From an uncultured Actinomycetes bacterium (GTDB lineage: Bacteria > Actinomycetota > UBA4738 > HRBIN12): a stretch of 64,000 nt of DNA. The stretch is from contig CAWEPH010000006.1 in assembly GCA_963810915.1 (NCBI GenBank), positions 939,030 through 1,003,029 on the forward strand, in the 5' to 3' direction. How positions within the stretch are numbered: the stretch's first letter is position 1; each line of letters begins with the position of its first letter. A program made the position numbers and the translations under genes. Shown here in pieces: positions 1,180 to 60,323 of this stretch. The notes beneath the pieces were generated by a model, which saw only the letters and a program-made list of their open reading frames with translations, was not told the DNA's origin and made no database searches.

Positions 1180-3327
1180 ATGAGCCACAACCCGCCATCA
1201 TGGGTGGACATGAGCGAGGCCTCCCGCGTCGGCCGTTCCCGGGGAACGGCGATCCTCCTCGCCATCGTCGCGGTCGCGATGGTGGTGGTGTACGCGCTGG
1301 TCCCATCGGACACGCACGGGCGTTCGCTCGTCACCGAGGCCCTCGTCGCCGCGTCCTGCGTGATCGGCGCGATGGTGATCACACGCGCCGTCATCAACGG
1401 GGCATGGCGGGGTGCGATCTGGCTCGCCTGGACGCTCCTGGTGCTGGGCGCCGCGAGCGCCCTGTTCTTCGTGCTCGATGCCTCCGGCCGCGCGAACTAC
1501 CGGCCCGGACCGATCGATCTCTGCTTCCTGGTCCTGCTGATCCCGCTGCTGAAGCTGGCGGGCGCGGAGGCGCGTCTGCACTTCGCGCCGCGCCTGCGCA
1601 GGGAGCTCAGCGTCGACCTCGTGCTCATCACGGCCTCGCTCACGGTGATCGGATACCTGGCGATCCGGCCGCCCTTCGCAGACGCTCAGGCCTCCATCTC
1701 GTCCGCGATCTTCGCACTCCTCGCGGCAACACAGTTCGCGGTCTTCGGCGCGATCGCTCTCTGGGTCCCCACCCGTCCCCACCTCCTGCAGGCGCTCCTG
1801 TTCGCGATCACGGCCGCCATCACGGCGAGCTTCGGATGGCAGTGGCTGCACGGCACGTTCGCGGGGACGACCACGTGGGTCGACCTCACCCTGGCGCTGA
1901 TCCCCCTGGGGTTCGCCGCGATCACCGTCCTGGAGCCGTCGCACACGGAGGCGCCGCCCGCACGCCCGCACCGGTGGACCCGCCCGGTGCTCACGAGCCT
2001 GGCGGTCGCGACCGCCTGCGCGGCCCTGATCTTGGTCGCGCTCTACGACGGCACCCGAGGGATGCCCTCCGCCGAGTCCACCGCCCTGATCGCGCTGCTC
2101 GGCCTCGGCATCGCGGCACGCATCATCGCGAACCAGGTGGCGAGCACGCAGTCCCATCGGGACGTGGAGGCCGCGCTCGCCGACAAGGAGGCCGCGCTCG
2201 CCGAGGCCGACCACGCGCTCGAGCAGGTGCGCGAGGCGAACGAGACGCTGAGCGAGTCCGAGGAACACCTCCGCCTCGTGTTCGACGCCGCCACCGATGG
2301 CGTCGCGGAGCTCGACCAGCGCGGGGTGGTGCTCCGCGCCAACCAGGCGCTCTGCCGGATGATGGGGATGGATCGTGAGGCCGTCGAAGGTCAACCCTGG
2401 TCCGCGCTGGCCGCCTCGGTGAACGGCGCGGAGGACAGCTTCGCCTCGCTGCCGGGCGCGGGAGAGACGGTCGTGCGACGGACGGACGGGCAGCCGCTCT
2501 TCCTGGAGTCGCGCGTCTCGAAGATCCCCGGCACGGTCCCGCGCACGCTCATGTTGGTGCGCGACGTGACCGCCGCCCGCGTGGCCGACCGCACGATCCG
2601 CTCGCTCTTCCAGTTCCTCCAGGACCGCGACGAGGATCGCACGCGGCTGCTGCGGCGGACGAACGCGGCGATCGAGGCGGAGCGCAACCGGATCGCGCGC
2701 GACCTGCACGACGGGCCTGTCCAGGGCGTGAGCGCTGCGTCGCTGTCGCTGGAGGCGGCCCTGCTGATGATCAAGGCGGGCGACACCGATCGCGGGATGG
2801 AGGTGCTCGCCCGGATCCGCGAGGAGCTCACGTCCGAGGCGGACGCCCTCCGTCGCCTGATGTCGGGCCTGCGTCCACCCGTGCTCGAGGAGCGAGGGCT
2901 CGTCCCCGCCCTGCAGGAGATGGTGCTCCGCTTCGGCGACGAGCAGGCGATCCACACCGAATTCGCCGGGCGTCTGAGTGGCGATCTACCCGACGACCTC
3001 GAGACGCTCGCCTACCGGGTCGTACAGGAAGCGCTCTCCAACGCGGCGAAGCACGCCGACGCCGCCATGCTCACCGTGAGCGTCGAGTCCGACGGCACCC
3101 AGCTGCGCATCGAGGTCCAGGACGACGGCAGGGGGTTCGACGCGACGCAACGCGCGGGAGTACCTGCGCGAGGGTCGGGTGGGCCTGGCGTCGATGCGTG
3201 AGCGGGTCGAGCTCGCGAGCGGCACCTTCGTCGTGCGCTCCTCGCCCGGTCGCGGGACCACGATCCTGGCCACCTTGCCGGTCGGACACACCGGCGTCGG
3301 ATCGCGAGCTGACCGTCAAGGTCTAGG
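1180..3327 (+). CDS. Membrane sensor histidine kinase (multi-TM N-domain, PAS, HisKA_3 H-box DLHDGPVQ, HATPase_c); reading frame broken near 3145
   Basis: About 8 TM helices, a PAS-like segment (LRLVFDAATDGVAELDQRG) and a NarX/DesK-type H-box. The HATPase motif DDGRGFD is in frame 1 and stops at 3201. The expected G-box and C-terminus (GLASMRERVELASGTFVVRSSPGRGTTILATLPV) continue in the +1 frame. A 1-nt indel is therefore inferred in or near the ggggg run at ~3130-3150. The true stop is ambiguous and may need a second shift at ~3290-3327. Confidence 0.7.
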
Positions 3328-7102: not shown

Positions 7103-7493
7103 TCACGGCGGCGCAGCGCCGGGCGAGGCCACCGGCAGATCGACGACCGCGCGCGAGCGCGCCGTGATGAAACGATCTCCGGGGAGCAACAGCAGCGAGC
7201 CGACGGGAACACGCACATCGACGAGCACCTCCGTGCCTCCGGCGTCACAGGCACACGCCGTGAGGGTGCCGCCGTTGCGCTCCGCGTACTCGGTCGCCAC
7301 CTCCGACGGTTCCATGCCCGTGGAGAACGCCATGCTCCTCGGCGGCGGCGAGCGCGGCGGCGTCCGCCGCCTGCTCCGCGTGCGCGCGTGCCACGAGCGC
7401 GTGCCCGACGTCGGCCGCGCCCATCGTGATGACCACGAGCAGCGCGATCACCGCCGCCGTCACGACGGTCACCGAGCCCCGCTCCTCGCTCAA
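7103..7493 (-). CDS. TadE-like pilus-assembly protein of the actinobacterial helicase/secretion neighbourhood type (TIGR03816-like); apparent frameshift near 7330
   Basis: N-terminal VTVVTAAVIALLVVITMGAADVG...AADAAALAAA signature. The C-terminal NGGTLTACACDAGGTEVLVDVRVPV segment continues in another frame (ORF 7103..7333). Confidence 0.55.
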
Positions 7494-7885
7494 CCGAACT
7501 CCTGACGATCGGTCGAGGTGGCATGCATGGGCACGCTGCCGCCGAACAACCAGTCGATCAACGGCACGCGCACGGCGGAGACGTAGTCCACCGTCACCGT
7601 GACGGGGTCGCCACGGACGCCCGCTCTGCCCACTGAGAGCGAGAGCGCGGCCGGGTCGAGCGAGGGCGCGGCGGCAGCCGCGGCATCGCGGATCGCTGCC
7701 GCATCGTCCTGGAGGGCGGCGGCGCGCGCCCCGGCGCGCGCCGCCGACTCCACCAGCAGCCGGTCCCGGACCAGCAGCCCGACCTGGACGACGGCCAGCG
7801 TGATCACGAGGAGCAGCGGGAGCACGAGCGCGAACTCGACGGCGGCGGTTCCCCGCTCAGCGTCGATGCCGGTCCTACGCCGCAC
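7490..7885 (-). CDS. TadE-family pilus assembly protein
   Basis: N-terminal class-III-like signal/TM with the AAVEFALVLPLLLVITLAV motif typical of TadE/TadF. 4-nt overlap with the downstream gene. Confidence 0.7.
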   Translation of the reverse strand: MRRRTGIDAERGTAAVEFALVLPLLLVITLAVVQVGLLVRDRLLVESAARAGARAAALQDDAAAIRDAAAAAAPSLDPAALSLSVGRAGVRGDPVTVTVDYVSAVRVPLIDWLFGGSVPMHATSTDRQEFG

Positions 7886-8090
7886 CGGCGTTCCCGATCA
7901 CGTCGTCGATCACCTGGTCGAAGAACGCGGGCAGCTTCCCCGACGAGTGCGCCCACGCGATCAGCACGACGGCCACGGCGGCCGCCGCCAGGATCACGAG
8001 CGCGTACTCCGCCGTGGTCTGTCCCTCCTCGCGTCGAAGGAGCCCCAGCGCACGGAACCACAGGACGTGCACGAGCACCATCCGATCCAC
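7875..8090 (-). CDS. Flp-pilin-like / DUF4244 small membrane protein (Rv3656c-like)
   Basis: 71-aa ORF with G-TTAEYALVILAAAAVAVVLIAW, the Flp/DUF4244 hallmark (G/xxxxEY followed by a hydrophobic helix). Confidence 0.6.
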   Translation of the reverse strand: MDRMVLVHVLWFRALGLLRREEGQTTAEYALVILAAAAVAVVLIAWAHSSGKLPAFFDQVIDDVIGNAGAA

Positions 8091-8100
8091 CTCCTCTCGC

Positions 8101-8938
8101 TCAACGGATGGACTGCACGGTGGTGAGCAGCACGGGCACCACCGTCAGGAGGAGGAAGGCGGGGAGGACGAGGAACACGAGCGGGAAGAGCATCTTCACC
8201 GGGCGCGGTGCGGGCCCGCTCGGTGATCGCGGCGCGTCGGGTGGCACGAACCGTCGACGGCGAGCTCGGCCGTCGCTTCGGCCAAGGACGAACCCAACGA
8301 CTCCGTGCGGGTGACGGCCGCCACCGCTCGCGTGAAGTCGGGGAGTCCGAGCCGGCCTGCGAGCGCCCGCAGCTCGTCGCGCCAGCGGGCCCCCAGATCG
8401 ACGCTGTCGAGCGTGCGGCGTAGCTCGCCTGCGAGCGGACCCTGCAGGCCGTCGGTGGCTCGCCGCAGGGCGAGGGGTGCTGCGAGTCCCGCCGACGACC
8501 CGGCCGCGAGGAGGTCGAGGAGCTGCGGGATCTCGGCGTCGATCGCCGTCCGTCGTCGTCTGGCGGCCCGAGCCGCCACGAAGCAGCGGCAGCCTGAGGC
8601 CGACGAGACCGAGCACCGGCGCGATCAAGCGGACCCGGCCCGGGTACGAGGAGCCCGAGCAGGACGCCCGCCCCACCCGTCACCAGACGGAGGCCCGCGA
8701 ATCGCGCCGGGGTGAAGGTCCATCCGCTCGTCGCGAGCGCTGCGTCGGCGCGGGATCCGCGAAGCCGCCGGCCCACCCGAGTCCTGCCGAGCCTCGTCAA
8801 CGGATCGGCGGGAGCGACGCCCGCGTCATCGTGGGCAAGGGGAAGCCGTCGCAGGATGGGGACCGTCGAGGCGGTGCATACGGCCAGCGCACACGCAGCG
8901 GCCGCGCCGAAGGCGAGCAGCATGGTGACCTCCGTCAT
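8101..8938 (-). CDS. TadC-like type II secretion system F-domain membrane protein; reading frame broken at least twice
   Basis: Frame X (8938 down to ~8590) holds the N-terminal TM and an internal TM. Frame Y (8579..8196) holds the T2SSF core (IPQLLDLLAAGSSAGL...). Frame Z (down to 8101) holds the C-terminus (PVKMLFPLVFLVLPAFLLLTVVPVLL). Confidence 0.55.
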
Positions 8939-9758
8939 CGGACCTCGAGGAGGTGCCGGATCCAAAGGAACGCCAGCCCCTCCATCGCGAGGCCGACCGT
9001 CACGGCGGCGATGCCCGCGGGCGTGCGGAACGCGCCCTCGATGTCGCTGCGCGAAGTGAGCCAGAGGAAGCCGAAGAACCCGATGGGGAGGAACCCGAGG
9101 ATCGCGCCGGAGAGGCGTGCCTGAGCGGTGAGGGCTCGCACTTCCTGGGCGGCCGCCCGTCGTTCGCGCAGCGTGACACCCACCTGATCGAGGACCATCG
9201 GGAGATCGCCACCGCTTCGGCGATGCAGGTGCAGGACGCCCGCGAGGAGCCTCGCGTCGCCGGTTCCCAAGCGTCGTCGACCCAGCCGTCGAGCGCGTGC
9301 TCCAGCGGGACGCCGACCGCGAGCTCGTCCACCACCCGACGGATGCTCAAGCTCAACGGGGCGGGCGTCTCCTCGGCGGCGTATCCGATCGCCTGCGGGA
9401 GCGACCGGCCCGCCCGCAGTGCCGCGGACAGCGCCCCCACCGCGTCGGCGAGCTGCTCGTCTTCCGTCGCCGATCGCTTGGCAGCCCGCCGCCTGGTGAC
9501 GAGCCGACGCACGAAGAGGGCGGCGGCGGCTCCCAACGCGGCGCCGAGCGGCGCGACGAGCACCCATCCGACCACCGCGCCCGCGGCCACCCACGGGACC
9601 CAGGTCGGCACCGAACGCATCTGCAAGCCGGCACCGAGCGCCGCTACACCCTCGGGCCGGTGCACGCGTTCCAGCAGCGCCGCTCGCCGATGCGCCGCGC
9701 CAGCCCGGCCGCCGAGCCAGACGAGGAGGAACGCGAGGACCCCGACCAGCGCGATCAT
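8935..9758 (-). CDS. TadB-like type II secretion system F-family membrane protein; apparent 1-nt deletion near 9290
   Basis: The N-terminal part is in ORF 9000..9758 (MIALVGVLAFLLVWL...). The C-terminal part is in the frame of ORF 8935..9765 (GDLPMVLDQVGVTLRERRAAAQEVRALTAQARLSGAILGFLPIGFF). Inserting 1 nt at the junction restores the frame. Confidence 0.6.
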
Positions 9759-9761
9759 GCG

Positions 9762-11046
<1,285 letters not shown>

Positions 11047-11251
11047 CGCCGACCTCCGTCCGCGCCGAACCCACGTGTCATCAACGAGGGGAAGCTGCGA
11101 GGGGGAAGCGACGGTCGGTGTTCTGGTGACCGCCGAGGGGAAAGCGAACGATAGCGAGCCCGGCGCGTCGAACCCATCCCCAGCCCGACCGATTCCCGGT
11201 TCTTGTCGGGGGACGATGTCCGAACGTGTCGGGTGAGACGGCCGCGGTTCG

Positions 11252-12910
11252 TTACCGCTCGCCGGGGTCGGTCGGCATGCGTTCGTCCACGATCGCCTGT
11301 GCGCGTTCGCGGCTCTGGGGATGACCGGTGACGGCCTCGAGGAACGGTTCCCGCTCGAGCGCCAGGAGCGTCATCGGCGTCGCAGCCGTGACGGTCGCCG
11401 TTCGCGGCACGTCGCGCAGCAACGCGATCTCACCGATGTGCTCGCCGACGCCGCGGTCGGTCACGTGCGCGCCATCCCGGGTCACCTCGGCCTCGCCCGT
11501 CTCGATGACGTAGAAACGCTCCCCTACCTCCCCCTCGCGGATCAGGACGTCGCCGGCCGCGAGCTCCGTCCGCTTGAGGTTGACGAGGATCCGCTGGATG
11601 GCCGGCGCAGGCAGCGGAGCGAAGATCGGTATGCCGCGTATCAGCTTCAGCATCTCGGCGTCCGGGGCCCTCGCCTCGCGGTCGATCGCTGAGAGCGGGA
11701 CCCAGAGCGCGAGGGCGGAGATCGGAGCTAGCGCACCGACCACGATGAGGGCCGTCCGCACGCCGAACGCCGCCATCAGCGCTGAGGCGCCCAGTGCGCC
11801 GGCCGCCGTCCCCAATGTCCCCAATCCTTCGACGATGCCGAACACGCGCGCCAGGACCTCGTCGGGCGCGATCCGCTGCAGGAGGGTGTTGCCGGCCATC
11901 CACGAGACGCTGCCTCCGGCACCGGCCGCCGCAAAGAGGAGGGGCGCGCTCGCTGCGGACGGAGCCGCGCCGACGACGATGATGGGCGCCCCGAACAGGA
12001 GCGTGCCGCCGGCGAGGGACGGGACCAATCGGCGCCGACCGACCAACGCCACCGTGAGGAGCGCCCCGACCAAGGCACCGACCCCCGCGGCCGAGTTGAG
12101 GAATCCGGCCCACCCCTGACCCTTGTGGAGCAGGTCGATGGCCACGCCGACGTAGATCACGTCGAGGGCTCCCAACAGGAGCATGCTCGCGGCCATCACG
12201 ATCACGAGCAGGCCCGCCCTGCGTTCCTCAGCGAGCACGCGGAAGCCTCCGAACGCCTCGCGTACCACGTCGTGCGCATCCATCGGCTCCTCGGGGCGCA
12301 TCCCGCCGGAGGCCACATCGAGACGCGCGACCAAAAGGGCACCGACGAACACGACCACCGCGAAGAGGGCGAACACCGCGGCCGGTCCGGTCTTCGCGAG
12401 CACCACGCCGGCAACGAACGGTCCGATCACCAGCGAGGCGCTCTCGGCCATGGCCGACACGGAGTTGGCCGCGGTCAGCTCCTTCGGGCTGAGAGCCACG
12501 CTGGGCAGGAGCGCGGACTGGGTGGGTCTCGTGAACGTCATGCTGGCGGCCGCGACGGTCGCGAAGACCAACGTCAGCCCGAACGGCGCGTCCGCGGCCA
12601 GGGCGATCGCGACCACGCCGAGCGCGACCGCCTGCGCGAGGTAGCTCACGAAGAGCACACGGTCGCGCGCGAACCGGTCGCCGGCGAAGGCCCCGAACGG
12701 CGCCACGAGCCCCGCCGGGACCAGCTGGATCGCCGCGGCCAGCCCGGCGGCCGTAGCCCCCCCGCGGTCGTACGCATAGACGAGGATCGCGATCCACGTG
12801 CCGTACTCCGACATGCCGAACCCGAAGAACGCGAGCTCGATCCGTGCCATCCGAGGATCGCGCGCGATGGCGCTCACGGTGCGCACCTGATCCCTCATGC
12901 CGCGCAGCAT
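11252..12910 (-). CDS. MFS transporter fused to a C-terminal cyclic-nucleotide-binding (CAP effector-type) domain
   Basis: About 12 TM helices with an MFS loop motif (GDRFARDRV). The C-terminal ~120 aa carry cNMP-binding motifs (FYVIETGEAEV...GEHIGEIALL...RTATVTAAT). Start may be 12910, 12898 or 12850. Confidence 0.75.
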   Translation of the reverse strand: MLRGMRDQVRTVSAIARDPRMARIELAFFGFGMSEYGTWIAILVYAYDRGGATAAGLAAAIQLVPAGLVAPFGAFAGDRFARDRVLFVSYLAQAVALGVVAIALAADAPFGLTLVFATVAAASMTFTRPTQSALLPSVALSPKELTAANSVSAMAESASLVIGPFVAGVVLAKTGPAAVFALFAVVVFVGALLVARLDVASGGMRPEEPMDAHDVVREAFGGFRVLAEERRAGLLVIVMAASMLLLGALDVIYVGVAIDLLHKGQGWAGFLNSAAGVGALVGALLTVALVGRRRLVPSLAGGTLLFGAPIIVVGAAPSAASAPLLFAAAGAGGSVSWMAGNTLLQRIAPDEVLARVFGIVEGLGTLGTAAGALGASALMAAFGVRTALIVVGALAPISALALWVPLSAIDREARAPDAEMLKLIRGIPIFAPLPAPAIQRILVNLKRTELAAGDVLIREGEVGERFYVIETGEAEVTRDGAHVTDRGVGEHIGEIALLRDVPRTATVTAATPMTLLALEREPFLEAVTGHPQSRERAQAIVDERMPTDPGER

Positions 12911-12959
12911 CGCACCCTCGGGCTCACCCGGTTTGCGGCCCCGAACCCCTGGCCCGAGG

Positions 12960-14342
12960 ATGGGCCCCGTGGAGATCCCGGAGATCCGCTACGCGAAGAC
13001 CCGTGACGGGATCCACATCGCCTATCAGGTGCTCGGCGACGGCCCGGCCGACCTGTTGTTCGTTCCGGGCTTCGCGTCGAACCTGATCTGGAACTGGCAG
13101 CTCCCCTCGTACGCCCACTTCCTGCGGCGACTGGGTTCGTTCTGCCGACTCATCATCGTCGACCGCCGCGGCTGCGGGGTCTCCGACCGGCTCTCACCCG
13201 AGGATCTCCCGTCCCTGGAGGTGATCGCGGACGACCTCGGCGCGGTGCTGGACGCCGTGGCGTCCGAGCGCGCGTCGATGTTCGCGGCGGATGAAGGCGC
13301 GCAGGGCGTGGCGCTCTTCGCAGCGACCCATCCCGAGCGGGTCGAGCGCCTGATCATCTACACGATGGACCCGATGGGCGACTTCCAGCCCTGGGCCGAC
13401 GGCTACAAGTCGCGCGAAGAGCGCGAGGCGTTCCTGGAGGCGTTCATCGTCGAGGTCGTCAAAGGTTGGGGCACGAGGGAGTTCGCGCATTCCGACCCGC
13501 TCGGAGGTCTCGTGATCTGCGGACCTTCCCTAGCCGACGATCCGAACGCGATCGATTGGTACACGGCGTTGTTGCTCCTCTCCACCAGCCCGAGTGGAGC
13601 GGTCGCGTTCCATCGCATGTACTTCGAGACTGACGCCCAGCCGATCCTCGCGTCCATCCGCGTCCCGACGTTGTTGCTCCACCGCGTCGGCGATCTGCTC
13701 GAACCGATCGAAGCGTCGCGCTTCATGGCCGGGCTGATCCCCGGCGCCCGCTTGATCGAACTGGACGGGGACGATCACGTGTGGTTCGCGGGCGACACCG
13801 ACTCCATCGTGGACCCGATCCAGGAGTTCATGACGGGTGCCCGGCCGGCGCACGACCTCGACCGCGTCCTGGCGACCGTGCTGTTCACCGACATCGTCGG
13901 CTCGACCGAGATGGCGGCCAGGCTGGGCGACACGGCATGGAAGGAACTGCTCGCCACGCATGACGAGTGGGCAAAGACGGAGATCGCAAGACATCGAGGG
14001 AACTACGTCCACACGACGGGCGATGGTCTGCTCGCGACCTTCGACGGACCGGCACGAGCGGTGCGATGCGCACAGGCGATCGGTGAGGCGGTTCGGTCGC
14101 TCGGGATCGAGCTCCGGTCGGGTTGCCATACGGGTGAGATCGAGCTCACCGCTGATGACGTGCAGGGTCTCGCCGTGCACATCGGCGCCCGAGTGGCCGC
14201 TGCCGCCGGGCCGGCCCAAGTTCTCGTCTCCTCCACGGTGAAGGATCTCGTGGCCGGATCCGGTCTCAGCTTCGAGGATGCCGGCGTGCACGAGCTGAAG
14301 GGCGTGCCCGACACCTGGCATCTCTATCGGGTTGTCGGCTGA
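12960..14342 (+). CDS. Paralog 1: alpha/beta-hydrolase-fold domain fused to class III nucleotidyl cyclase domain (LipJ/Rv1900c-like)
   Basis: N-domain has hydrolase-fold motifs (FVPGF...IIVDRRGCGVSD...). The cyclase homology domain has [44 protein letters not shown]. The stop overlaps the next start (TGATG). Confidence 0.8.
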   Translation: MGPVEIPEIRYAKTRDGIHIAYQVLGDGPADLLFVPGFASNLIWNWQLPSYAHFLRRLGSFCRLIIVDRRGCGVSDRLSPEDLPSLEVIADDLGAVLDAVASERASMFAADEGAQGVALFAATHPERVERLIIYTMDPMGDFQPWADGYKSREEREAFLEAFIVEVVKGWGTREFAHSDPLGGLVICGPSLADDPNAIDWYTALLLLSTSPSGAVAFHRMYFETDAQPILASIRVPTLLLHRVGDLLEPIEASRFMAGLIPGARLIELDGDDHVWFAGDTDSIVDPIQEFMTGARPAHDLDRVLATVLFTDIVGSTEMAARLGDTAWKELLATHDEWAKTEIARHRGNYVHTTGDGLLATFDGPARAVRCAQAIGEAVRSLGIELRSGCHTGEIELTADDVQGLAVHIGARVAAAAGPAQVLVSSTVKDLVAGSGLSFEDAGVHELKGVPDTWHLYRVVG

Positions 14343-15700
14343 TGGAGACCCCTCGCACGCGGTACGCGAAGACCGTCGACGGGGTCAGCATCGCCTATCA
14401 GGTGCGGGGTGACGGGCCCGTCGATCTCATCTACGCGAGGGGGTGGACCCAGAACCTCGAGATCGAGCTCGAGGGACCGCGGAGCGGCGCCTGGTTCAGT
14501 GGGCTCGCCTCCATCTCGCGTTTGATCCTCTTCGACAAGCGAGGGACGGGCCTCTCGGACCGCACCGCGACGCCCGACCTCGAGATACGCGCCGACGACC
14601 TGCGAGCGGTGCTCGACGCCGCCGGCTCGGACCGCGCTGTCGTGATGGGCGACGCCGACGGTGGCGCCCTCGCGGTGTTCTTCGCGGCGACCCACCCGGA
14701 GCGCGTGCAGGCCCTGATCCTCAATGGGGCGTACGCGCGCGCCGCATGGGCCCCCGACTACCCGATCGGGCAGAAGGAGGACGACTTCCTGGCAGACCGA
14801 GAAGACACGGCCAGACGATGGGGCACGATCGAGTTCGCGCAGGAATGGGTCGATCGACAGGCGCCCTCGCTCTCGAACGACACCGAATACGTCGAATGGT
14901 TCGCGAAGACCTTGCGGCACGGGGCCTCTCCCGCGGCCGAGCTCGAGTTCGAAGACATGTGGCGCGAGATCGACGTCCGCTCCGTGCTCGGAAGCGTGCA
15001 GGCGCCAACGCTCGTGGTCGCCACGCCGGGTGCGGGCGATCTGGTCAAGGGGACGGGGGACGTGGCCCGCGAGCGTTACCTCGTCGAGCGGATCCCCGGC
15101 GCGAAGTACGTGGAGCTCCCTGGCCGCGACCTCATCATCGAGCACACGAACCCAACCCTGCTCCTGGATGAGATCGAACGGTTCATCCGATCGGTGAGCG
15201 CGGAGGAGCGCGAGATCGATCGGGTCCTGGCGACCGTCATGTTCACCGACATCGTGGGCTCGACCGAACGAGCGTCCACGTTGGGCGACGCAGCATGGAG
15301 AGATCTGCTGGAGCGCCACCATCGAACGGTGCGAGCGATGATCGGCCGCTATCGGGGACAGGAGATCAACACGGCGGGCGACGGGTTCCTGGCCACGTTC
15401 GACGGCCCCGCTCGAGGGGTGAGATGCGCGCAAGCGATCGCCGAAGCGGTACATCCCCTTGGCCTCGAGGTCCGAGCCGGCCTGCACACGGGCGAGATCG
15501 ACGTCACCGGCGACGATGTTCAGGGTATCGCCGTGCATATCGGTGCCCGTGTCGGGGCCCTGGCGGGTCCGTCCGAGGTCTTGGTCTCGCAGACGGTCAA
15601 GGACCTCGTCGCCGGGAGCGGGCTCACGTTTGAGGAGGCCGGCGAGCACGAGCTCAAGGGCGTCCCTGACCGCTGGCACCTCTACCGGGTGGTGAGCTGA
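14342..15700 (+). CDS. Paralog 2: hydrolase-fold + class III cyclase fusion
   Basis: 452 aa, intact. METPRTRYAKTVDG...FTDIVGSTERA...[26 protein letters not shown]...RAGLHTGEI...[10 protein letters not shown]. Confidence 0.85.
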   Translation: METPRTRYAKTVDGVSIAYQVRGDGPVDLIYARGWTQNLEIELEGPRSGAWFSGLASISRLILFDKRGTGLSDRTATPDLEIRADDLRAVLDAAGSDRAVVMGDADGGALAVFFAATHPERVQALILNGAYARAAWAPDYPIGQKEDDFLADREDTARRWGTIEFAQEWVDRQAPSLSNDTEYVEWFAKTLRHGASPAAELEFEDMWREIDVRSVLGSVQAPTLVVATPGAGDLVKGTGDVARERYLVERIPGAKYVELPGRDLIIEHTNPTLLLDEIERFIRSVSAEEREIDRVLATVMFTDIVGSTERASTLGDAAWRDLLERHHRTVRAMIGRYRGQEINTAGDGFLATFDGPARGVRCAQAIAEAVHPLGLEVRAGLHTGEIDVTGDDVQGIAVHIGARVGALAGPSEVLVSQTVKDLVAGSGLTFEEAGEHELKGVPDRWHLYRVVS

Positions 15701-15701
15701 C

Positions 15702-17060
15702 TTGGAGACCTACCGGACGCGGTACGCGATGACCGTCGACGGGGTGAACATCGCCTACCAGGTACGAGGGAACGGACCGGTCGATCTCCTCTGGGTCGGG
15801 GGGTTCACCGCGAACCTCGAGGTTGAATACGACGGCCCAAGGAACAACGCCTCCTTCTACGCGGAGCTCGCCGCGTTCACCCGGCTGATCTTGTTCGACA
15901 AGCGCGGGACCGGGTTGTCGGATCGCACGCAGACCCCCGACCTCGAGAAGCGTGTCGACGATATGCGGGCGGTGTTGGACGCGGTCGGCTCCGAGCGAGC
16001 GGTGGTGCTTGGCGCCGCGGACGGCGCGGCCCTGGCGGCGTTCTTCGCGGCGACACATCCCGAACGGGTTCAGGCGCTGATCCTCAAGTCTCCCAGCGCG
16101 CGCACCGCATGGGCCCCCGACTACCCGCAGGGGATGAAGGAGGAGGACTACCTGGCGGAACGGGAGGATATGGCGCGACGATGGGGCTCGATCGAGCTGG
16201 CGCAGGAATGGGTGTCACGTGAGGCCCCCTCGCTCGCGCACGACACCGAATACGTCGAGTGGTTCGCGAAGTCGATGCGACATGGTGCATCCCCGGGGTC
16301 CGCCGTCGCGTTCGAGGACGTTTACTACGCGATCGACGTGCGGTCGATCCTCGGGAGCGTCCAGGCGCCCACCCTCGTGCTCGCCATCCCAGGAGCGGAC
16401 GAGCAGTTCGAGACCGTAGGCGCTGGACAGGACCGAGACCTCGCCGATGGGATCCCCGGCGCGAAGTACGTCGAGTTGTTTGGGCGAGATCTCGTCATCA
16501 TCGCCACGAACCCGCGAGTGCTTCTCGACGAGATCCACGGATTCATCAACTCGGTGAGCGCCGAGGAGGCCGAGTTCGATCGCGTACTCGCGACCGTGCT
16601 CTTCACCGACATCGTCGGCTCGACCGAGCGCGCGTCGGCGTTGGGAGACGGGGCGTGGAAGGACCTACTCCGACGCCACCACGAGGTGGTTCGCGCCATG
16701 ATCGGCCGTTACCGCGGCAAGGAGATCGGCACGGCGGGCGATGGGTTCCTCGCGACCTTCGACGGCCCCGCTCGAGGCGTGCGCTGCGCGCAGGCGATCG
16801 CCGAGGCCGTGCAACCCCTAGGTCTGGAGATCCGAGCCGGCCTGCACACCGGCGAGATCGAGGTGACGGGCGACGATGTCCAGGGCATCGCCGTCCACAC
16901 GGGCGCCCGCGTCGGTGCCCTCGCGGGACCGTCCGAAATCCTGGTCTCCCAAACCGTCAAGGATCTCGTGGCCGGATCGGGTCTCGCCTTCGAGGACGCC
17001 GGCGAGCACGAGCTGAAGGGCGTGCCCGACCGCTGGCGCCTCTATCGGGTGGTGGGCTGA
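15702..17060 (+). CDS. Paralog 3: hydrolase-fold + class III cyclase fusion
   Basis: 452 aa, intact, TTG start 1 nt after the previous stop. More than 70% identical to paralogs 2 and 4 by eye. Confidence 0.85.
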   Translation: METYRTRYAMTVDGVNIAYQVRGNGPVDLLWVGGFTANLEVEYDGPRNNASFYAELAAFTRLILFDKRGTGLSDRTQTPDLEKRVDDMRAVLDAVGSERAVVLGAADGAALAAFFAATHPERVQALILKSPSARTAWAPDYPQGMKEEDYLAEREDMARRWGSIELAQEWVSREAPSLAHDTEYVEWFAKSMRHGASPGSAVAFEDVYYAIDVRSILGSVQAPTLVLAIPGADEQFETVGAGQDRDLADGIPGAKYVELFGRDLVIIATNPRVLLDEIHGFINSVSAEEAEFDRVLATVLFTDIVGSTERASALGDGAWKDLLRRHHEVVRAMIGRYRGKEIGTAGDGFLATFDGPARGVRCAQAIAEAVQPLGLEIRAGLHTGEIEVTGDDVQGIAVHTGARVGALAGPSEILVSQTVKDLVAGSGLAFEDAGEHELKGVPDRWRLYRVVG

Positions 17061-17061
17061 G

Positions 17062-18405
17062 GTGGACATCCCTCGCACCCGGTATGCGAAGACCGTCGAC
17101 GGGGTCCACATCGCGTATCAGGTACGGGGTGACGGGCCTGTCGATCTCATCTACGCGATGGGATACACGGCGAACTTCGAGGTGGAGCTCGAAGGACCTC
17201 GGAGCGGCATGTACTTCGATGGGCTTGCCTCGCTCGCCCGACTGATCCTGTTCGACAAGCGTGGGACCGGGTTGTCGGACCGAACCCAGACACCCGACCT
17301 CGAGATGCGCGCGGACGACCTGCGAGCGGTGCTGGACGCGGTCGGATCCGAACGAGCAGTGGTGCTCGGTGCTGCCGACGCCGGCGCCCTGGCGGCCTTC
17401 TTCGCGGCCGCCCATCCGGAGCGGGTGCGGGCCCTGATCCTCAACGGGGCCTACGCGCGGAAGGCGTGGGCTCCCGACTACCCGAACGGGCAGACGGAGG
17501 AGGACTACCGCGAAGGTCGAGAAGACATGGCACGACGCTGGGGGACGATGGAGCTGGCACAGGACTGGGTCGATGCCGAGGCGCCGTCGCTCTCGCACGA
17601 CGCGGAGTACCTGGAATGGTTCACCAAGACCATGCGCTACGGCGCTTCCCCTGCGGCCGCCGTCGAGTTCGAGGACGCGATCTACGCCATCGATGTACGG
17701 GCGATCCTCGGGACGGTGCAGGCGCCGACCCTCGTGCTGGCGCAGCCCGGTTCTCTGGACACCGCCGGCGGGCGCGAACGCGATCTTGCAGACCGGATCC
17801 CCGGCGCGAAGTACGTCGAGCTTCCGGGGCGGGACTTCATCATGGAGCACACCAACCCCGCCCCCCTGCTGGATGCGATCGGAGGGTTCATCCGATCGGT
17901 GAGTGCTGAGGAGCGCGAGATCGACCGGGTCCTGGCGACCGTCCTGTTCACCGACATCGTGGGTTCGACGGAGCGGGCGGCCCAACTCGGGGATGGAGCG
18001 TGGAGGGCCTTGCTGGAGCGGCACCACGAGGTGGTGCGGGCGATGATCGGGCGGTACCGGGGCACCGAGGTCAGCACGGCGGGCGACGGGTTCCTCGCGA
18101 CGTTCGACGGACCCGCCCGAGGGGTTCGCTGCGCGCAGGCGATCGCTGAAGCGGTGCAGCCGTTGGGGCTCGAGATCCGAGCCGGTTTGCACACGGGTGA
18201 GGTGGAGACGATCGACGGCTCGGTAGGCGGCATCGCCGTCCACACCGGCGCGCGCGTGGGTGCCCTCGCAGCACCGTCCGAGGTCCTCGTCTCGCAGACC
18301 GTCAAGGATCCGGTGGCCGGCTCCGGCCTCTCGTTCGAGGATGCCGGTGAGCACGAGCTGAAGGGTGTCCCCGACCGGTGGCGCCTGTACCGGGTGGTGA
18401 GCTGA
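17062..18405 (+). CDS. Paralog 4: hydrolase-fold + class III cyclase fusion
   Basis: 447 aa, intact, GTG start. Same motif set. The stop overlaps the next ATG (TGATG). Confidence 0.85.
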   Translation: MDIPRTRYAKTVDGVHIAYQVRGDGPVDLIYAMGYTANFEVELEGPRSGMYFDGLASLARLILFDKRGTGLSDRTQTPDLEMRADDLRAVLDAVGSERAVVLGAADAGALAAFFAAAHPERVRALILNGAYARKAWAPDYPNGQTEEDYREGREDMARRWGTMELAQDWVDAEAPSLSHDAEYLEWFTKTMRYGASPAAAVEFEDAIYAIDVRAILGTVQAPTLVLAQPGSLDTAGGRERDLADRIPGAKYVELPGRDFIMEHTNPAPLLDAIGGFIRSVSAEEREIDRVLATVLFTDIVGSTERAAQLGDGAWRALLERHHEVVRAMIGRYRGTEVSTAGDGFLATFDGPARGVRCAQAIAEAVQPLGLEIRAGLHTGEVETIDGSVGGIAVHTGARVGALAAPSEVLVSQTVKDPVAGSGLSFEDAGEHELKGVPDRWRLYRVVS

Positions 18406-19760
18406 TGGAGTCCCCTGAGACCAGGTACGCCCTGACCTCGGACGGCGTCTACGTCGCGTACCAGATGCTCGGCGAGGGCCCCATCGACCTAGTGTTCGCC
18501 TTCGGCTGGCTCAACAACGTCGATTCCGTCTGGTCGATCCCGGAGATCGCATCGTTCTATCGACGCCTGGCCGCCTTCTCTCGCTTGATCATCTTCGACC
18601 GGCGCGGCACGGGGTTGTCGGACCGCATCACCGAGGGTGAGGCTGCAACCTTCGAAGCCGGCATGGACGACATCCGAGCAGTGATGGATGCGGCAGGATC
18701 CGAACGGGCCCTGCAGGTCGGGTTCCAAGACGGCGGGATGCTCTGCGCGCTGTTCGCGGCATCCTTCCCGGAGCGAGCCACCGGCCTCGTGATCATCGGG
18801 AGCTCGCCGGTAACCATCTGGGCACCGGACGCTCCCTGGGGATGGACGGAACAGGAGTATCAGCCATACCTCGATGCCTTGGTGCAAGGCTGGGGCACAC
18901 CCGGATGGACCGCGCGGCACATGGAATCGATGGCACCTTCGTTCCGAAGCAGCGACCGGGCGGCCGTGGAGCGCTTCGCCAAGCATTTCCGCGCGTGTGC
19001 GAGTCCGGGTACGGCGCTGGCGATCGAACGGATGCTCATGCACAGCGACGTGCGAGGCGTGCTCCCGACGATCCAGGTGCCGACGCTCGTGATCCACAAC
19101 GTCGATGATGCGGTCGAAGAGGTCAGAGCAGCGCGCTACACGGCTGAAGAGATCCCCGGGGCCAAGCTCGTCGAGCTGCCGTTCACGGAGCATGCGCCCT
19201 TCTACGAGAGCGCGAACCCGACCCTTGAAGCTGTGGAGACGTTCGCCTCGCAGGTTCGAGCGGAGCAGGCCGAGTTCGACCGCGTGCTCGCCACCGTGCT
19301 GTTCACCGACATCGTGGACTCCACCGCCCAAAGCGCGGCCATGGGCGACCACCTGTGGCGGGACGTGCAGCAACGACACGACCGCATCGTGCGGGCGAAC
19401 CTCGCACGCTACCGAGGGAGAGAGATCAAGACGATGGGCGACGGATTCCTCGCCACGTTCGACGGACCCGCACGCGGCGTGCGGTGCGCCGAGTCGATAG
19501 CGGCGGCGATACTGCCGCTCGGGATCGAGATCCGCGCCGGGCTGCATACGGGCGAGGTGGCGTTCGAAGGCGACGATGTCAACGGCCTGGGGGTGGCGAT
19601 CGGGGCGCGCGTCGGAGCCCTCGCTAGAGCGTCCGAGGTGCTGGTCTCCCAAACCGTCAAGGACCTCGTGGCCGGCTCCGGACTCACGTTCGAGGACGCC
19701 GGTGAGCACGAGCTGAAGGGCGTGCCCGACCGCTGGCGCCTCTACCGGGTGGTGGGCTGA
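18405..19760 (+). CDS. Paralog 5: hydrolase-fold + class III cyclase fusion (more divergent; Lys retained in KTMGDGF)
   Basis: MESPETRYALTSDG...FTDIVDSTA...[29 protein letters not shown]...RAGLHTGEV...GLGVAIGARV. Confidence 0.8.
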   Translation: MESPETRYALTSDGVYVAYQMLGEGPIDLVFAFGWLNNVDSVWSIPEIASFYRRLAAFSRLIIFDRRGTGLSDRITEGEAATFEAGMDDIRAVMDAAGSERALQVGFQDGGMLCALFAASFPERATGLVIIGSSPVTIWAPDAPWGWTEQEYQPYLDALVQGWGTPGWTARHMESMAPSFRSSDRAAVERFAKHFRACASPGTALAIERMLMHSDVRGVLPTIQVPTLVIHNVDDAVEEVRAARYTAEEIPGAKLVELPFTEHAPFYESANPTLEAVETFASQVRAEQAEFDRVLATVLFTDIVDSTAQSAAMGDHLWRDVQQRHDRIVRANLARYRGREIKTMGDGFLATFDGPARGVRCAESIAAAILPLGIEIRAGLHTGEVAFEGDDVNGLGVAIGARVGALARASEVLVSQTVKDLVAGSGLTFEDAGEHELKGVPDRWRLYRVVG

Positions 19761-19761
19761 G

Positions 19762-21211
19762 GTGAACACGCCTCGCACCCAGTACGTAAAGACCGACGAC
19801 GAGGTGTATATCGCCTACCAGGTCGTCGGCGACGGTCCAGTCGACCTGGTCTGGCAGTTCGACTACTTCGGGAACGTCGACGCCGTGTGGGAGCACCCGC
19901 TGTGGGCGCGCTTCCTCGGCGGCTTCGCGGAATTCTCTCGGCTGATCCTCCTTGATCGTCGAGGGACAGGGCAGTCGAGCCGCAACGTACCGCCGTCCGA
20001 TCTTGAGACCCGCGCCAGGGACCTGCGGACGGTCCTCGATGCATTGGGATCCGACGTCGTGGTGGCGGCTGGCCACGGTCAAGGAGGAGCCGCGAGCGCC
20101 CTCGCAACGTACCGCCGTCCGATCTTGAGACCCGCGCGAGTGACCTGCGGACGGTCCTCGATGCGTTGGGGTCCGACGTCGTGGTGGCGGCCGGCCACGG
20201 CCAGGGGGGAGCAGCGAGCGCCCTGTTCGCCGCTACGGAGCCGGATCGGGTGCGCTCGTTCGTGTGGGATGAACCGGTAGCGCGGACGTTGTGGGCACCC
20301 GACTATCCGTGGGGCGTGAGCATCGCATATCTCGAGCGACGCACGTCGGCTGACCCAGGACCACTGGGGAACGGATGCCTTCTTCGCGATGTTGGCGGCG
20401 CTTGATGACTATCCCGTGCCGACGGAGGTGACGATCGGGTACGGGAAGCTCTGCCGATCCACCGCCACCCCGGACGTCGCGCTCGAGATCGATCGCATCT
20501 GGAACGAGACCGACATCCGCGGGGCACTTCCGTCCGTGCGCGCGCCCGCACTCCTCACCGAGCTGGATTCCGGTGATCCGGGCCAGATCAACTACATCGC
20601 GTCGCTGATGCCGGACGCACGGGTGGTTCGGATCCCCGGCGAAGATGGATACCAGCCCGAGGTGATCGACCGCACTCACGATGCGATCCGGGCCTTCCTC
20701 GGGCTGGCGACGGCACCACCTGGCGCGGACCGGATCCTGGCAACGGTGCTGTTCACCGACATCGTCGATTCCACAGGACGAGCGGCCGAGCTCGGTGACT
20801 CCGCCTGGAGGCAGGTCCTGGCGGCGCACGACGAGCGAGCTCGCGACCGAGATCGAGCGGTATGACGGACGCTATGTCCATACGACCGGCGATGGGCTGC
20901 TCGCCACGTTCGATGGACCCGCGCGGGCGGTGCGTTGCGCGCGTGCGATCGCGGACGCGGTCCGCTCGCTCGGTCTCGAGATCCGCGCGGGCTGTCACAC
21001 CGGCGAGATCGAGCTGGTCGGCGACGACGTGCAGGGCCTCGCCGTGCACATCGGCGCGCGCGTGGCGGCGCTGGCCGGAACCCCCGACGTGCTCGTTTCC
21101 TCGACGGTGAAGGATCTCGTCGCCGGCTCCGGCCTCACCTTCGAGGATGCCGGCGAGCACGAACTGAAGGGCGTGCCCGACCGCTGGCACCTGTATCGGG
21201 TGACGGGCTGA
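19762..21211 (+). pseudogene. Paralog 6: hydrolase-cyclase fusion disrupted by a ~122-bp internal tandem duplication plus at least two further frameshifts
   Basis: Homologous segments are spread over three frames (ORFs 19762..20280, 20166..20405, 20389..20865, 20681..21211). The duplicated peptide GSDVVVAAGHGQGGAASAL is encoded twice. Confidence 0.7.
19981..20224 (+). repeat. Direct tandem duplication, 2 x ~122 bp (about 93-95% identical), inside paralog 6
   Basis: The run gcaacgtaccgccgtccgatcttgagacccgcgc...gacctgcggacggtcctcgatgc.ttggg.tccgacgtcgtggtggcggc.ggccacgg... occurs at 19982 and again at 20104. The unit length is not a multiple of 3. Confidence 0.85.
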
Positions 21212-22549
21212 TGGAACGTCCCGAGGTCCAGTTCGCGAGGGCGTCCGACGGCGCGTACCTCGCCTATCAGACCTTCGGGAGCGGTCCTATCGACATCTTC
21301 TGGCAGGAAGAGTTCCTCGCCTTGGTCGACCAGTTCTGGGACTCCCCACCGGAGCGCGCGTTGCACGAGGGATTGGCCGAGTACGGCCGCGTGACCATCT
21401 ACGATCGGAGAGGCACGGGCTCTCGAGCCGCAACGTGGCGCCCGGCAACCTCGAGACCCAGGTCGCGGACACCCTCGCCGTCCTCGATGCTCAAGGCATC
21501 GAGCGCGCGGTCTTCGGTGGGATCCTCGAATGTGGAGCCGCGAACGCGCTGCTCGCCGCCACCTACCCGGACCGCGTCCAGGCGCTCCTGTGGATGACGC
21601 CTGTTCCTCGGACGACCACGACGTCGGACTACCCATGGGGAGTCGGACCCGAGTACGTCGAACGCGAGCGGAGATCCTCGAACGCTGGGGGACGTTACGA
21701 TGGGCTCGCGAGTTCGTCGAGATGAACTCGATGGTGATGGGCGGACCGTGGGCAAGCGGAGGAGTACATCCGGTTCATCACGAGAGCGAGCCGCAGGACC
21801 TGCACGCCCGACGTCGCGAAGGAGCTCAGCCGCATCTGGTACGACACCGACATCCGGGGCATCCTCCCGACGATCCAGGCACCGATGCTGCTGGTGACCT
21901 CCGAGGACGACTGACGACCTGGAATTAGCAGGCTCCGTCGCCGAGCGAGTTCCTCTCGCCGAGATCAGAACGTTCCCGGGTCCGTACCTCGAGATCGAGG
22001 ACTTCGCCTCGATCCATTCTGCGATCAGCCGATTCATCGGCGCCGAGCGGCCGCCTCTGGGCCTCGATTCCGTGCTCGCGACGGTGCTGTTCACGGACAT
22101 CGTCGGGTCGACCGAGCGCGGGGCCGCACTGGGGGACTGCGGCATGGCAGGAGATCCACGAACGCCACGACAGGATCGTGCGGGGCGAGCTCGAACGCCA
22201 TCGTGGCCGTGAGATCAAGCGCACGGGCGACGGCTTCCTCGCGACGTTCGACGGACCTGCACGCGGTGTGCACTGCGCCCGGGCGATCGCCGAGGAGATG
22301 CAGACCCTCGGGATCGAGATCCGCGCAGGGCTCCACACCGGGGAGATCGAACTCGACGCCGACGACATCGCGGGGCTCACGGTTTCGATCGGCGCCCGCG
22401 TGAGCGCGAAGGCCGGTCCGTCCGAGGTCCTGATCTCCCAGACCGTGAAGGATCTGATCGCAGGTTCGGGCCTCTCGTTCGAGGATGCGGGCGAGCACGA
22501 GCTGAAGGGCGTCCCGGACGTGTGGCACCTCTATCGGGTGGTCGACTGA
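21211..22549 (+). pseudogene. Paralog 7: hydrolase-cyclase fusion with multiple frameshifts
   Basis: Recognisable pieces sit in at least four frames: MERPEVQFARASDGAYLAYQ..., ...AVLDAQGIERAVFGG..., [21 protein letters not shown], and [26 protein letters not shown]...HLYRVVD. Confidence 0.65.
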
Positions 22550-23854
22550 GTGGACACCCCGGAGACGCGGTACGCGAAGGCGCCCGACGGGGTCTCGATC
22601 GCGTACCACGTCGTGGGCGACGGACCCATCGACCTCATCTGGCTCCACGCCTTCATGGGAGGGCTGGAGGTCATCTGGGAACACGAGGCGATGCGGTCGC
22701 TCACGACCAAGCTCACATCCTTCGCCCGCGTGATCAGGCACGACATGCGCGCGACGGGCCTCTCGAGCCGCGCGGCCGAGCTCCCCGACCTCGAGACGCA
22801 GGTGCAGGATGCGGCGGCGGTGCTCGACGCGGTTGGCTCTCGTTCGACCGTCATCTTGGGAGCGGGCCCCGGAGCGCACGCCGCGTCGCTGTTCGCGGCC
22901 ACCTACCCCGATCGCACCCGGGCGCTCGTCCTCTGGGACTTCTACGCGTGGGCCGGCAACGTGTTCCGCCCCACCGACCTCGACCTCCTGAGCCGGACCT
23001 GGGGCACCGAGGCGTCGGCCGCCGCCGCGATGGCCCAGGTGGCCCCATCGATGATCGACGACCGCGAGTTCCTCCGCTGGTACGCCAAGGTCCAGCGCCA
23101 CTTCGTGCCCCCCGACGTCGCCGCCGAGCTCATCCAGAGCGCGATCGACACCGACATCCGGCCCGTCCTACCCGTGATCCACGTCCCCACCCTGGTGTTG
23201 GCCCGAGGATGGTCCAACCACGAGAAGGATCGCGACGTGGCCCAGACGATCGAGGGGTCGACGTTCCTCCTGCTCCCGGGCTCGGACCGGGCGACCTTCG
23301 CCGGCAATCAGGACGACCTCGTCGGCGCGGTCAGGGACTTCGTCGGAGGTGGTCCAGCCGCCAGGTCGGGGCAGACCCTTCTGCGAGCCGTGTTGTTCAC
23401 CGACATCGTGGGGTCAACCGAGCATCTCGCGCGGGTCGGAGATCAGGCCTGGCGGGAGCTGATCGTCGCGCACGACGATCGCTCCCGACGCGCGATCGAA
23501 CGACACGGGGGCCACATCGTCAAGAGCACGGGAGACGGCGTGCTCGCGACGTTCGAGGGACCCGCGCAGGCCGTGCGTGGGGCGCAGGAGGTCGCGGCAT
23601 CGCTCGAGGAGCTGGGACTCGAGATCCGCGCGGGGGTCCACGTAGGCGAGATCGAGACCATCGGCGACGACGTCACGGGCGTGAGCGTGAACGTCGCGGC
23701 GCGGGTCGCGGCGATGGCGGGCGCCTCGGAGGTCCTCGTCTCCTCGACGGTGAAGGACCTGACCCCGGGATCGGGCCTCACCTTCGAAGACGCGGGGGAG
23801 CACGAGCTGAAGGGCGTCCCCGACACGTGGCACCTCTACCGGGTGATCCTGTGA
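22550..23854 (+). CDS. Paralog 8: hydrolase-fold + class III cyclase fusion (most divergent; canonical Asn retained in VNVAARV)
   Basis: 434 aa, intact, GTG start adjacent to the paralog 7 stop. FTDIVGSTEH, KSTGDGVLATFEGPAQAVRGAQ, RAGVHVGEIE, GVSVNVAARVAAMAG. Confidence 0.8.
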   Translation: MDTPETRYAKAPDGVSIAYHVVGDGPIDLIWLHAFMGGLEVIWEHEAMRSLTTKLTSFARVIRHDMRATGLSSRAAELPDLETQVQDAAAVLDAVGSRSTVILGAGPGAHAASLFAATYPDRTRALVLWDFYAWAGNVFRPTDLDLLSRTWGTEASAAAAMAQVAPSMIDDREFLRWYAKVQRHFVPPDVAAELIQSAIDTDIRPVLPVIHVPTLVLARGWSNHEKDRDVAQTIEGSTFLLLPGSDRATFAGNQDDLVGAVRDFVGGGPAARSGQTLLRAVLFTDIVGSTEHLARVGDQAWRELIVAHDDRSRRAIERHGGHIVKSTGDGVLATFEGPAQAVRGAQEVAASLEELGLEIRAGVHVGEIETIGDDVTGVSVNVAARVAAMAGASEVLVSSTVKDLTPGSGLTFEDAGEHELKGVPDTWHLYRVIL

Positions 23855-60172: not shown

Positions 60173-60228
60173 TCCTCGTCCCAGGAGACCTCCGGACCCG
60201 CGACTCGGACCGAGGCCGACTATCCTTC

Positions 60229-60322
60229 CGGTGGAGGCGTCAGGGTTCCTGGTGGGCCCCGCGGTCTTCAACACCGTAGTGGGGGCGCGAGCTCCCAGGC
60301 GGGTTCGATTCCCGTCCGCCTC
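60229..60322 (+). tRNA. selC: tRNA-like gene with anticodon UCA and long variable arm: candidate selC (tRNA-Sec)
   Basis: Acceptor halves GGAGGCG (60230-36) and CGCCTCC (60314-20) are perfectly complementary. Canonical T-arm GCGGG-TTCGATT-CCCGT. Anticodon stem GCGGT/ACCGT with loop CTTCAAC (U33, anticodon UCA, A37), identical in context to E. coli selC (CUUCAAA). Short 4-nt D-loop (GTTC) with a 4-6 bp D-stem. GNRA-capped variable stem (GGGGGC-GCGA-GCTCCC). Discriminator G. Hand-folded only. Confidence 0.5.
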
Positions 60323-60323
60323 C

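Follow-up and report, generated by a model that had tools for sequence, protein, structure and literature searches.

The stretch of DNA analysed here (the window) comprises 64,000 nucleotides of contig CAWEPH010000006.1 from an uncultured Actinomycetes bacterium; its G+C content is about 69% and its closest relatives are metagenome-assembled genomes labelled Actinomycetota or uncultured Actinomycetes. It carries a gene for a carrier of the major facilitator superfamily (MFS) extended by a C-terminal cyclic-nucleotide-binding (CNB) domain and, divergently oriented, a tandem array of eight genes of the class III cyclase type. We consider it rather probable that the fusion protein is a proton-coupled MFS exporter of the EntS/DHA3-like kind, regulated by cyclic AMP (cAMP), and that its gene is linked by lineage to, and probably co-transcribed with, the cyclase array.

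An earlier note, made from the sequence alone, had described the gene as a fusion of a permease with 12 transmembrane (TM) helices and a C-terminal CNB domain, which was borne out by three types of comparison. Pfam returned MFS_1 (E=1.9e-27, 96.5 bits against a cut-off of 33.4, residues 26-317), MFS_3 (32.1 bits) and cNMP_binding (E=1.1e-17, 64.2 bits against a cut-off of 27.5, residues 449-527). An AlphaFold2 model that drew on 30 relatives (pLDDT 82.2, pTM 0.76) displayed 12 membrane helices arranged as 6+6, with an amphipathic helix inside the central loop, then a short linker of helical structure and an eight-stranded barrel with flanking helices, the strands of the CNB domain lying within residues 446-519. 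When the model was compared to the Protein Data Bank (PDB) with Foldseek, the first 410 residues matched 12-TM MFS carriers such as VMAT2 and MdfA (target TM-score 0.73-0.82) and the C-terminal part matched the CNB domains found in HCN2 and in the regulatory subunit of PKA; none of the solved chains superposed well on the MFS and CNB parts together. The matches with channels had TM-scores of about 0.2, with good alignment confined to the CNB part, and a 6-TM channel with its pore is absent upstream of the CNB domain, since the membrane domain has the MFS fold. Among the three closest MFS-CNB genes the dN/dS ratio was 0.14-0.18 overall and 0.12-0.23 for the linker-plus-CNB part. The true start of the gene is probably ATG 12898, because the majority of the homologues in the alignment begin at the equivalent of Met5. 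Either way the gene does not reach 12960, where the earlier note had placed its end: that position is the ATG of the cyclase gene.

From its conservation, the CNB domain looks functional as a cyclic-nucleotide sensor. Its sequence matches in the PDB were PKG, PKA-R, MlotiK1, HCN and the mycobacterial Pat. Its phosphate-binding cassette (GEIALLRDVPRTA / GEHIGEIALLRDVPRTATV) has both the key Glu and the key Arg, which align with the residues by which PKG and PKA domains of solved structure hold the ribose 2'-OH and the cyclic phosphate. G493, E494, R503 and A505 are invariant in 30 relatives at 54-90% identity, and no other 12-residue window of the protein is as conserved as residues 493-505 (mean column identity of 0.95). 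Among 78 relatives at 37-91% identity, the Gly-Glu pair was kept in all 78, the Arg in 75 and the next Thr in 73; the question of the Glu and Arg, raised by the earlier note, is thus answered by a nearly invariant pair. Either ligand would fit the Arg-Thr-Ala motif, which typifies cGMP-selective PKG domains and is also common in cAMP-binding bacterial domains. The ligand would be cAMP, less likely cGMP; the neighbouring enzymes point to cAMP. The qualification of the domain as 'CAP-type' holds only in the superfamily sense: no HTH_Crp domain was detected by Pfam after the CNB domain, the protein stopping 23 residues past it, so that it does not qualify as a CRP/CAP regulator, and its best solved matches were the regulatory domains of PKG and PKA. 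Pfam gave no match to a patatin/NTE esterase domain after the CNB domain either, in the 552-aa protein.

The linker which joins TM12 to the CNB domain is also well conserved. In the 30-relative alignment D410, P416 and D417 are invariant, and the mean column identity is 0.74 for residues 405-434 versus 0.70 for the TM core. A conserved D410...P416-D417 linker is what would be expected if movement of the sensor passes to the carrier.

As to the transporter part, MFS motif A (consensus G-x3-D-R/K-x-G-R-R/K) is found between TM2 and TM3, at residues 73-84 (GAFAGDRFARDR); its D78 and R82 are invariant, and among the stretches of the protein it ranks second in conservation. The same alignment has two invariant acidic residues embedded in the membrane, E35 and D250. 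Acidic residues in such places are typically associated with proton coupling or with cationic substrates, and E35 and D250 fit proton coupling. The best curated transporter models are all of exporters, i.e. TIGR00900 (H+ antiporter, DHA3), EntS, Tet(V), Mef(A) and Pfam MFS_3, with matches spanning residues 22-411. All family-level scores were far below their cut-offs (116.4 against 319.6 bits for TIGR00900 and 78.8 against 324 bits for EntS NF007792), so that the protein is a member of neither family. The MFS part therefore only resembles the EntS/DHA3 equivalogs, and it appears to be proton-coupled and exporter-like. A substrate derived from the likeness to EntS, Tet(V) or Mef(A) was considered and rejected, since the scores are far under the family cut-offs.

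The neighbour on the opposite strand is, as the earlier note had it, a cyclase. Paralog 1 contains the Pfam domains Abhydrolase_1 and Guanylate_cyc, scored 410 bits against the NCBIfam LipJ model (under the 800-bit cut-off) and 164 bits against the solved Rv1900c cyclase domain (PDB 1YBT). Its GTG 12969 start coincides in the alignment with METPRTRY, where the other paralogs begin. Both metal-binding Asp and the transition-state Arg are kept in all six intact paralogs. The other catalytic positions vary: the first substrate-specifying residue is H, N, G, S, K and K, respectively, the second is Asp in five paralogs and Ser in paralog 4, and the position of the transition-state Asn is occupied by His in paralogs 1-4 (as in Rv1900c), by Ala in paralog 5 and by Asn in paralog 8. 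Paralogs 1-3 share the D...H...R residues with Rv1900c. Judging from these residues, such differences might let heterodimers form with a single active site, or give the paralogs different nucleotide preferences. The alpha/beta-hydrolase domain is probably a non-catalytic sensor or scaffold, because the nucleophile Ser of the G-x-S-x-G motif is missing in all six intact paralogs (the motif reading, for example, GDADG, GAADG or FQDGG). A search with the window cyclases found no cyclase outside the array in the 64-kb window, and neither a family hidden Markov model nor Pfam scans of 29 other open reading frames (ORFs) revealed a second CNB domain, a CRP-type regulator or a phosphodiesterase there. 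The frame breaks seen in paralogs 6 and 7 (19762-22546), and likewise in a TadA-like ATPase gene (9762-11046), are either assembly indel errors or signs of recent pseudogenes; the orthologues of paralogs 6 and 7 in L002, the locus with the closest transporter, are intact.

To determine how far the pairing extends, 92 related loci were gathered from genomes, exact-protein look-ups and a metagenome scan, and all were searched with the window cyclases. In L002 (transporter 91% identical) seven cyclases occupy the same divergent position, the first being the orthologue of window paralog 2 (96%), so that the two arrays differ by at least one copy. In L001 (transporter 89% identical) there is no cyclase; a 27-codon scar is found instead, at about 9870-9950 on the minus strand, in which the first codons of a cyclase are joined to the last 17 codons of one. 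This junction of a cyclase head and a cyclase tail marks a deletion of the array by recombination between paralogs. The array, with eight copies in the window, seven in L002 and none in L001, expands and collapses by inter-paralog recombination.

Relatives at 57-67% identity often have cyclases too, in varied arrangements and with different flanking genes. L003 contains a transporter duplicated in tandem, with cyclases to either side, including a divergent pair, and a CRP-type regulator nearby, and L059 is divergent, with a 67-bp spacer. A convergent cyclase is directly adjacent in L013, L022 and L044, whereas cyclases lie at 0.8-1.5 kb in L014, L016 and L017 and a single one at 7 kb in L005; in some loci of the clade the cyclase is co-directional with the MFS-CNB gene. 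No cyclase was found in L007, L008, L009, L010, L015, L052 and L060, which belong to the same clade. The divergent arrangement put forward by the earlier note thus recurs with cyclases in L002, L003 and L059, and is replaced elsewhere by convergent, co-directional or distant ones. In a neighbour-joining tree, every cyclase-linked locus falls in one clade, made of the relatives at or above about 57% identity (about 20 independent loci). There, a LipJ-like cyclase is the commonest neighbour (in raw counts, 11 of 20 loci after clustering, 12 if L059 is counted), and it is immediately adjacent to the MFS-CNB gene in seven. The next commonest neighbours are DMFA2_C and a B12-binding/succinyl-CoA-ligase pair, in four loci each. 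Over the whole family the cyclase and MFS-CNB genes are not conserved neighbours; within the clade their recurrent linkage goes beyond shared synteny, since flanking genes and orientations differ. To conclude, the cyclase link is real and recurrent, yet limited to one lineage, variable in orientation and dispensable.

Two side observations concern the same clade. Six or seven hydrolase-cyclase genes flank, on both sides, the tandem MFS-CNB paralogs of L003 / L004 (ERZ25039488 contig_3430), which share 65-66% identity with the window protein; the CRP-type regulator found there (cNMP_binding plus HTH_Crp_2) makes with the cyclases a denser cAMP gene island. The DMFA2_C gene found beside MFS-CNB in four loci codes for a protein of about 486 aa, dimethylformamidase-like in its C-terminal part.

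The start codons of the two divergent genes are separated by 49 bp if the longest MFS ORF is taken (MFS ATG 12910 and cyclase ATG 12960) and by 61-70 bp with the starts supported by homologues (MFS ATG 12898; cyclase ATG 12960 or GTG 12969), in keeping with the 50-110 bp given by the earlier note. The spacer was aligned for the window, L002, the L001 scar, L003 and L059, which represent about three independent lineages: all five have a divergent spacer of 61-70 bp in which conserved blocks can be recognized, L001 having kept it beside its cyclase scar. Two of the blocks resemble -10 hexamers, one on each strand, and both have an invariant A as second base and an invariant T as sixth base. The plus-strand hexamer was read as a -10 element because its L003 version, CAAGAT, would be a poor ribosome-binding site. 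Leaderless mRNAs are common in Actinobacteria, and the conserved blocks could tentatively fit two back-to-back promoters making such mRNAs. An inverted repeat of 11 nt (12913-12923 / 12952-12962) was considered as an operator and rejected, as it is not conserved in L002. No CRP site of the TGTGA-N6-TCACA type was seen in the spacer when it was read by eye, no pattern search having been run.

Features of the MFS-CNB gene, of the divergent spacer and of the cyclase array (window coordinates, unless a locus is named)
Feature	Position	Strand	Remarks
MFS-CNB fusion gene	11252..12910	minus	552 aa from ATG 12910; 548 aa from ATG 12898
MFS transmembrane domain	11675..12856	minus	residues 19-412, 12 helices (6+6); AlphaFold2, Foldseek, hydropathy
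Linker, TM12 to CNB	11609..11674	minus	residues 413-434; continues IDR-x-A-x-APD motif
Cyclic-nucleotide-binding domain	11324..11608	minus	residues 435-529; Pfam, PDB sequence matches, AlphaFold2 beta-barrel
Phosphate-binding cassette GEHIGEIALLRDVPRTAT	11393..11446	minus	residues 489-506, with Glu494 and Arg503
Divergent intergenic region	12899..12968		alignment of five divergent loci
-10-like hexamer GATGCT	12906-12911	minus	7 nt ahead of ATG 12898; conserved block
TTGCGG block	12933-12938	plus	17 nt upstream of GAGGAT
-10-like hexamer GAGGAT	12956-12961	plus	7 nt ahead of GTG 12969; conserved block
Cyclase paralog 1	12960..14342	plus	abhydrolase + class III cyclase, LipJ-like; start ATG 12960 or GTG 12969
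Cyclase paralog 2	14342-15700	plus	intact
Cyclase paralog 3	15702-17060	plus	intact
Cyclase paralog 4	17062-18405	plus	intact
Cyclase paralog 5	18405-19760	plus	intact
Cyclase paralog 6	19762-21211	plus	split over several reading frames (tblastn)
Cyclase paralog 7	21211-22546	plus	split over several reading frames (tblastn)
Cyclase paralog 8	22550..23854	plus	intact; sole canonical Lys-Asp-Asn-Arg adenylate cyclase signature
DMFA2_C gene	L003 5163-6626; L008 1966-3426; L009 4593-6050; L052 ~7932-9395		

The mechanism that we favour can be described as follows. The MFS-CNB gene and the recombining cyclase array would be, probably, under the control of a compact bidirectional promoter region; given the linkage and this probable shared region, the sensor and its cAMP producers would be inherited and expressed together. 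The cyclic nucleotide, which the earlier note supposed to be made locally, would be cAMP, less likely cGMP, and would bind the phosphate-binding cassette via Glu494 and Arg503. The CNB helices would rearrange in consequence, and the movement would be transmitted through the short, conserved linker to TM12 and the C-terminal six-helix bundle, and the equilibrium between the inward-facing and outward-facing states would shift so that export of a small molecule is switched on or off.

Several points weigh against this reading. For gating of an MFS-CNB carrier by cAMP, the argument is an analogy with channels and kinases that CNB domains regulate. The promoter layout is of low confidence, because the five loci amount to so few independent lineages and because a consensus scan of 11000-13200 for promoters and terminators gave nothing at threshold. 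Since orientation varies between loci, a shared promoter is not the conserved feature, and since cAMP diffuses, adjacency does not imply local signalling. The linkage to LipJ-like genes is expressed in raw adjacency counts, not as an excess over a chance expectation. In L001, the transporter gene is intact, its cassette is unchanged and its dN/dS ratio is about 0.18: it has lost the array and kept the gene under purifying selection, so that the sensor does not depend on cis-encoded cyclases. Lastly, in the approximately 60 loci of less than 57% identity the gene has no cyclase among its neighbours, and many of these loci share another conserved neighbourhood (BrkB-like, GNAT, DedA, topA and holB). 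The earlier note held that its reading would be refuted if the two genes were not conserved neighbours in related genomes; they are so within one clade only (about 11-12 of about 20 loci), and not in these distant loci nor in L001. The changes in array size by recombination, the purifying selection on a transporter deprived of its array, the distant members without cyclase neighbour and the variable orientation would all be accounted for if transporter and array were functionally independent, the CNB domain reading a cell-wide cAMP pool fed by any cyclase and the adjacency resulting from a tandem cyclase expansion at a recombination-prone spot which, in one lineage, lay by chance beside the gene. 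We nevertheless regard independence as unlikely, since cyclases recur in over half of the clade loci, seven times immediately adjacent, among relatives only 57-66% identical and with different surroundings. The locus with a duplicated transporter is moreover bracketed by cyclases and carries a CRP-type regulator, and the 64-kb window has no cyclase besides those of the array.

Two other explanations bear on what the protein carries and on what its C-terminal domain does. We know of no actinobacterial cAMP exporter identified so far; the fusion could be one, activated by its own substrate, the CNB domain sensing cAMP in a feed-forward manner and opening an overflow valve as the adjacent cyclases raise the cAMP level. 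If true, this would provide a self-regulating overflow valve and the missing route of cAMP release by Actinobacteria. The MFS part is of the exporter type, it sits beside eight cAMP producers, and mycobacteria are reported to secrete cAMP (PMC5855569 and PMC3938503). However, most family members are not linked to cyclases, and the invariant membrane-embedded E35 and D250 are acidic and would not favour an anionic nucleotide; we consider this explanation improbable. It is even less probable that the C-terminal domain binds another ligand, or has a purely structural or dimerization role, as in some members of the CRP/FNR family. CNB-fold domains with other ligands do exist (CooA, NtcA and CprK), and cyclic-nucleotide binding by the present family is deduced from sequence features; but the Gly-Glu and the Arg, which are missing in the members that do not bind cyclic nucleotides, are here nearly invariant and lie in the most conserved segment of the protein. 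The cAMP-regulated exporter linked by lineage to its cyclase array thus remains our preferred interpretation.

Some features of the surroundings deserve mention. Directly downstream of the transporter gene and on the same strand, after a 205-bp gap without predicted terminator, lies a Tad-pilus gene set (7490-11046, minus strand) coding for a TadA-like T2SSE ATPase, two T2SSF (TadB/C-like) proteins and TadE; this arrangement is common to the window, L001 and L002. Farther away, the window encodes a protein of 1036 aa (59934-63044, plus strand) in which a GNAT acetyltransferase is joined to CoA-binding, succinyl-CoA-ligase-like and ATP-grasp domains. Mycobacterial Pat is regulated by cAMP through a fused CNB domain; by its domain content, the 1036-aa protein may be a Pat-type protein acetyltransferase without CNB domain. 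In L010, an unusual fusion of 670 aa (1208-3220, minus strand) associates MFS_3/MFS_1 with a thymidylate kinase and adjoins the genes for topoisomerase I and the DNA polymerase III delta' subunit; it is also present in L019, L025, L030 and L031 and so occurs repeatedly in soil metagenome contigs.

Post-translational control of transporters by second messengers is well documented for c-di-AMP, which acts through CBS or RCK domains; to our knowledge, direct control of an MFS carrier by cAMP has not been shown to date. A large family, an exceptionally conserved ligand site and a clade-level cyclase link together make a practical entry to the question whether cAMP gates a secondary transporter directly, and the linked cyclase arrays suggest a signal input which feeds the transporter. 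As for novelty, the genomic pairing is lineage-specific and dispensable, and the fusion was already catalogued.

The size of the family was estimated in two ways. A word-indexed protein search gave 1452 proteins at E<=1e-10, the best match being 90% identical; both Pfam domains are present in nearly all of the top 120, which their sources call simply 'MFS transporter' or 'MFS family permease'. When 1.84 billion cluster representatives were searched exhaustively, 1565 clusters (50% identity) scored at E<=1e-30, and more than 140 of the best 150 representatives align end to end, with lengths of 540-560 aa. As far as could be traced in the literature, no MFS-CNB fusion has been characterized. MFS proteins with a C-terminal CNB domain were catalogued in the census of Willson, Dalzell, Chapman and Thomas (2019, Microbiology 165:419), as cited in the review PMC10710835, where such regulatory fusions are said to be largely uncharacterized and the CNB domain is proposed to be a plug-on allosteric regulator. 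In the catalogued fusions, as in the window protein, a cytoplasmic CNB domain comes after an MFS permease; that review says nothing of the clade-restricted linkage to arrays of cyclases.

Among other known systems, the closest come from the bacterial channels and from Mycobacterium tuberculosis. MlotiK1 and SthK likewise have a membrane transport domain followed by a C-terminal CNB domain with the same cassette Glu/Arg for cAMP, and the window CNB domain matches the former by sequence (E of about 1e-12) and the latter by fold. They are tetrameric 6-TM potassium channels gated via a C-linker, whereas the window protein is a 12-TM MFS carrier with a shorter and different linker. Rv3239c and Rv3728 were reportedly described, by McCue et al. 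(2000, Genome Res 10:204), as MFS-like proteins with cNMP-binding and esterase (patatin/NTE) domains. Going by their descriptions, they are, like the window protein, actinobacterial MFS proteins of the efflux type with a CNB domain, but their length is about double and they bear an additional esterase domain, for which the window protein gave no patatin match; both are listed as MFS efflux pumps of M. tuberculosis (PMC6300501). The exporters EntS, DHA3 (TIGR00900) / MFS_3, Tet(V) and Mef(A) have in common with the window protein the 12 TM helices and motif A and, unlike it, no CNB domain. As to the array, the window paralogs have the same alpha/beta-hydrolase plus class III cyclase layout as LipJ / Rv1900c of M. 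tuberculosis, but there are eight tandem copies against one, the hydrolase nucleophile Ser is missing, and the first substrate-specifying residue varies from paralog to paralog. The window fusion is thus an addition to an already catalogued architecture, rather than a new kind of system.

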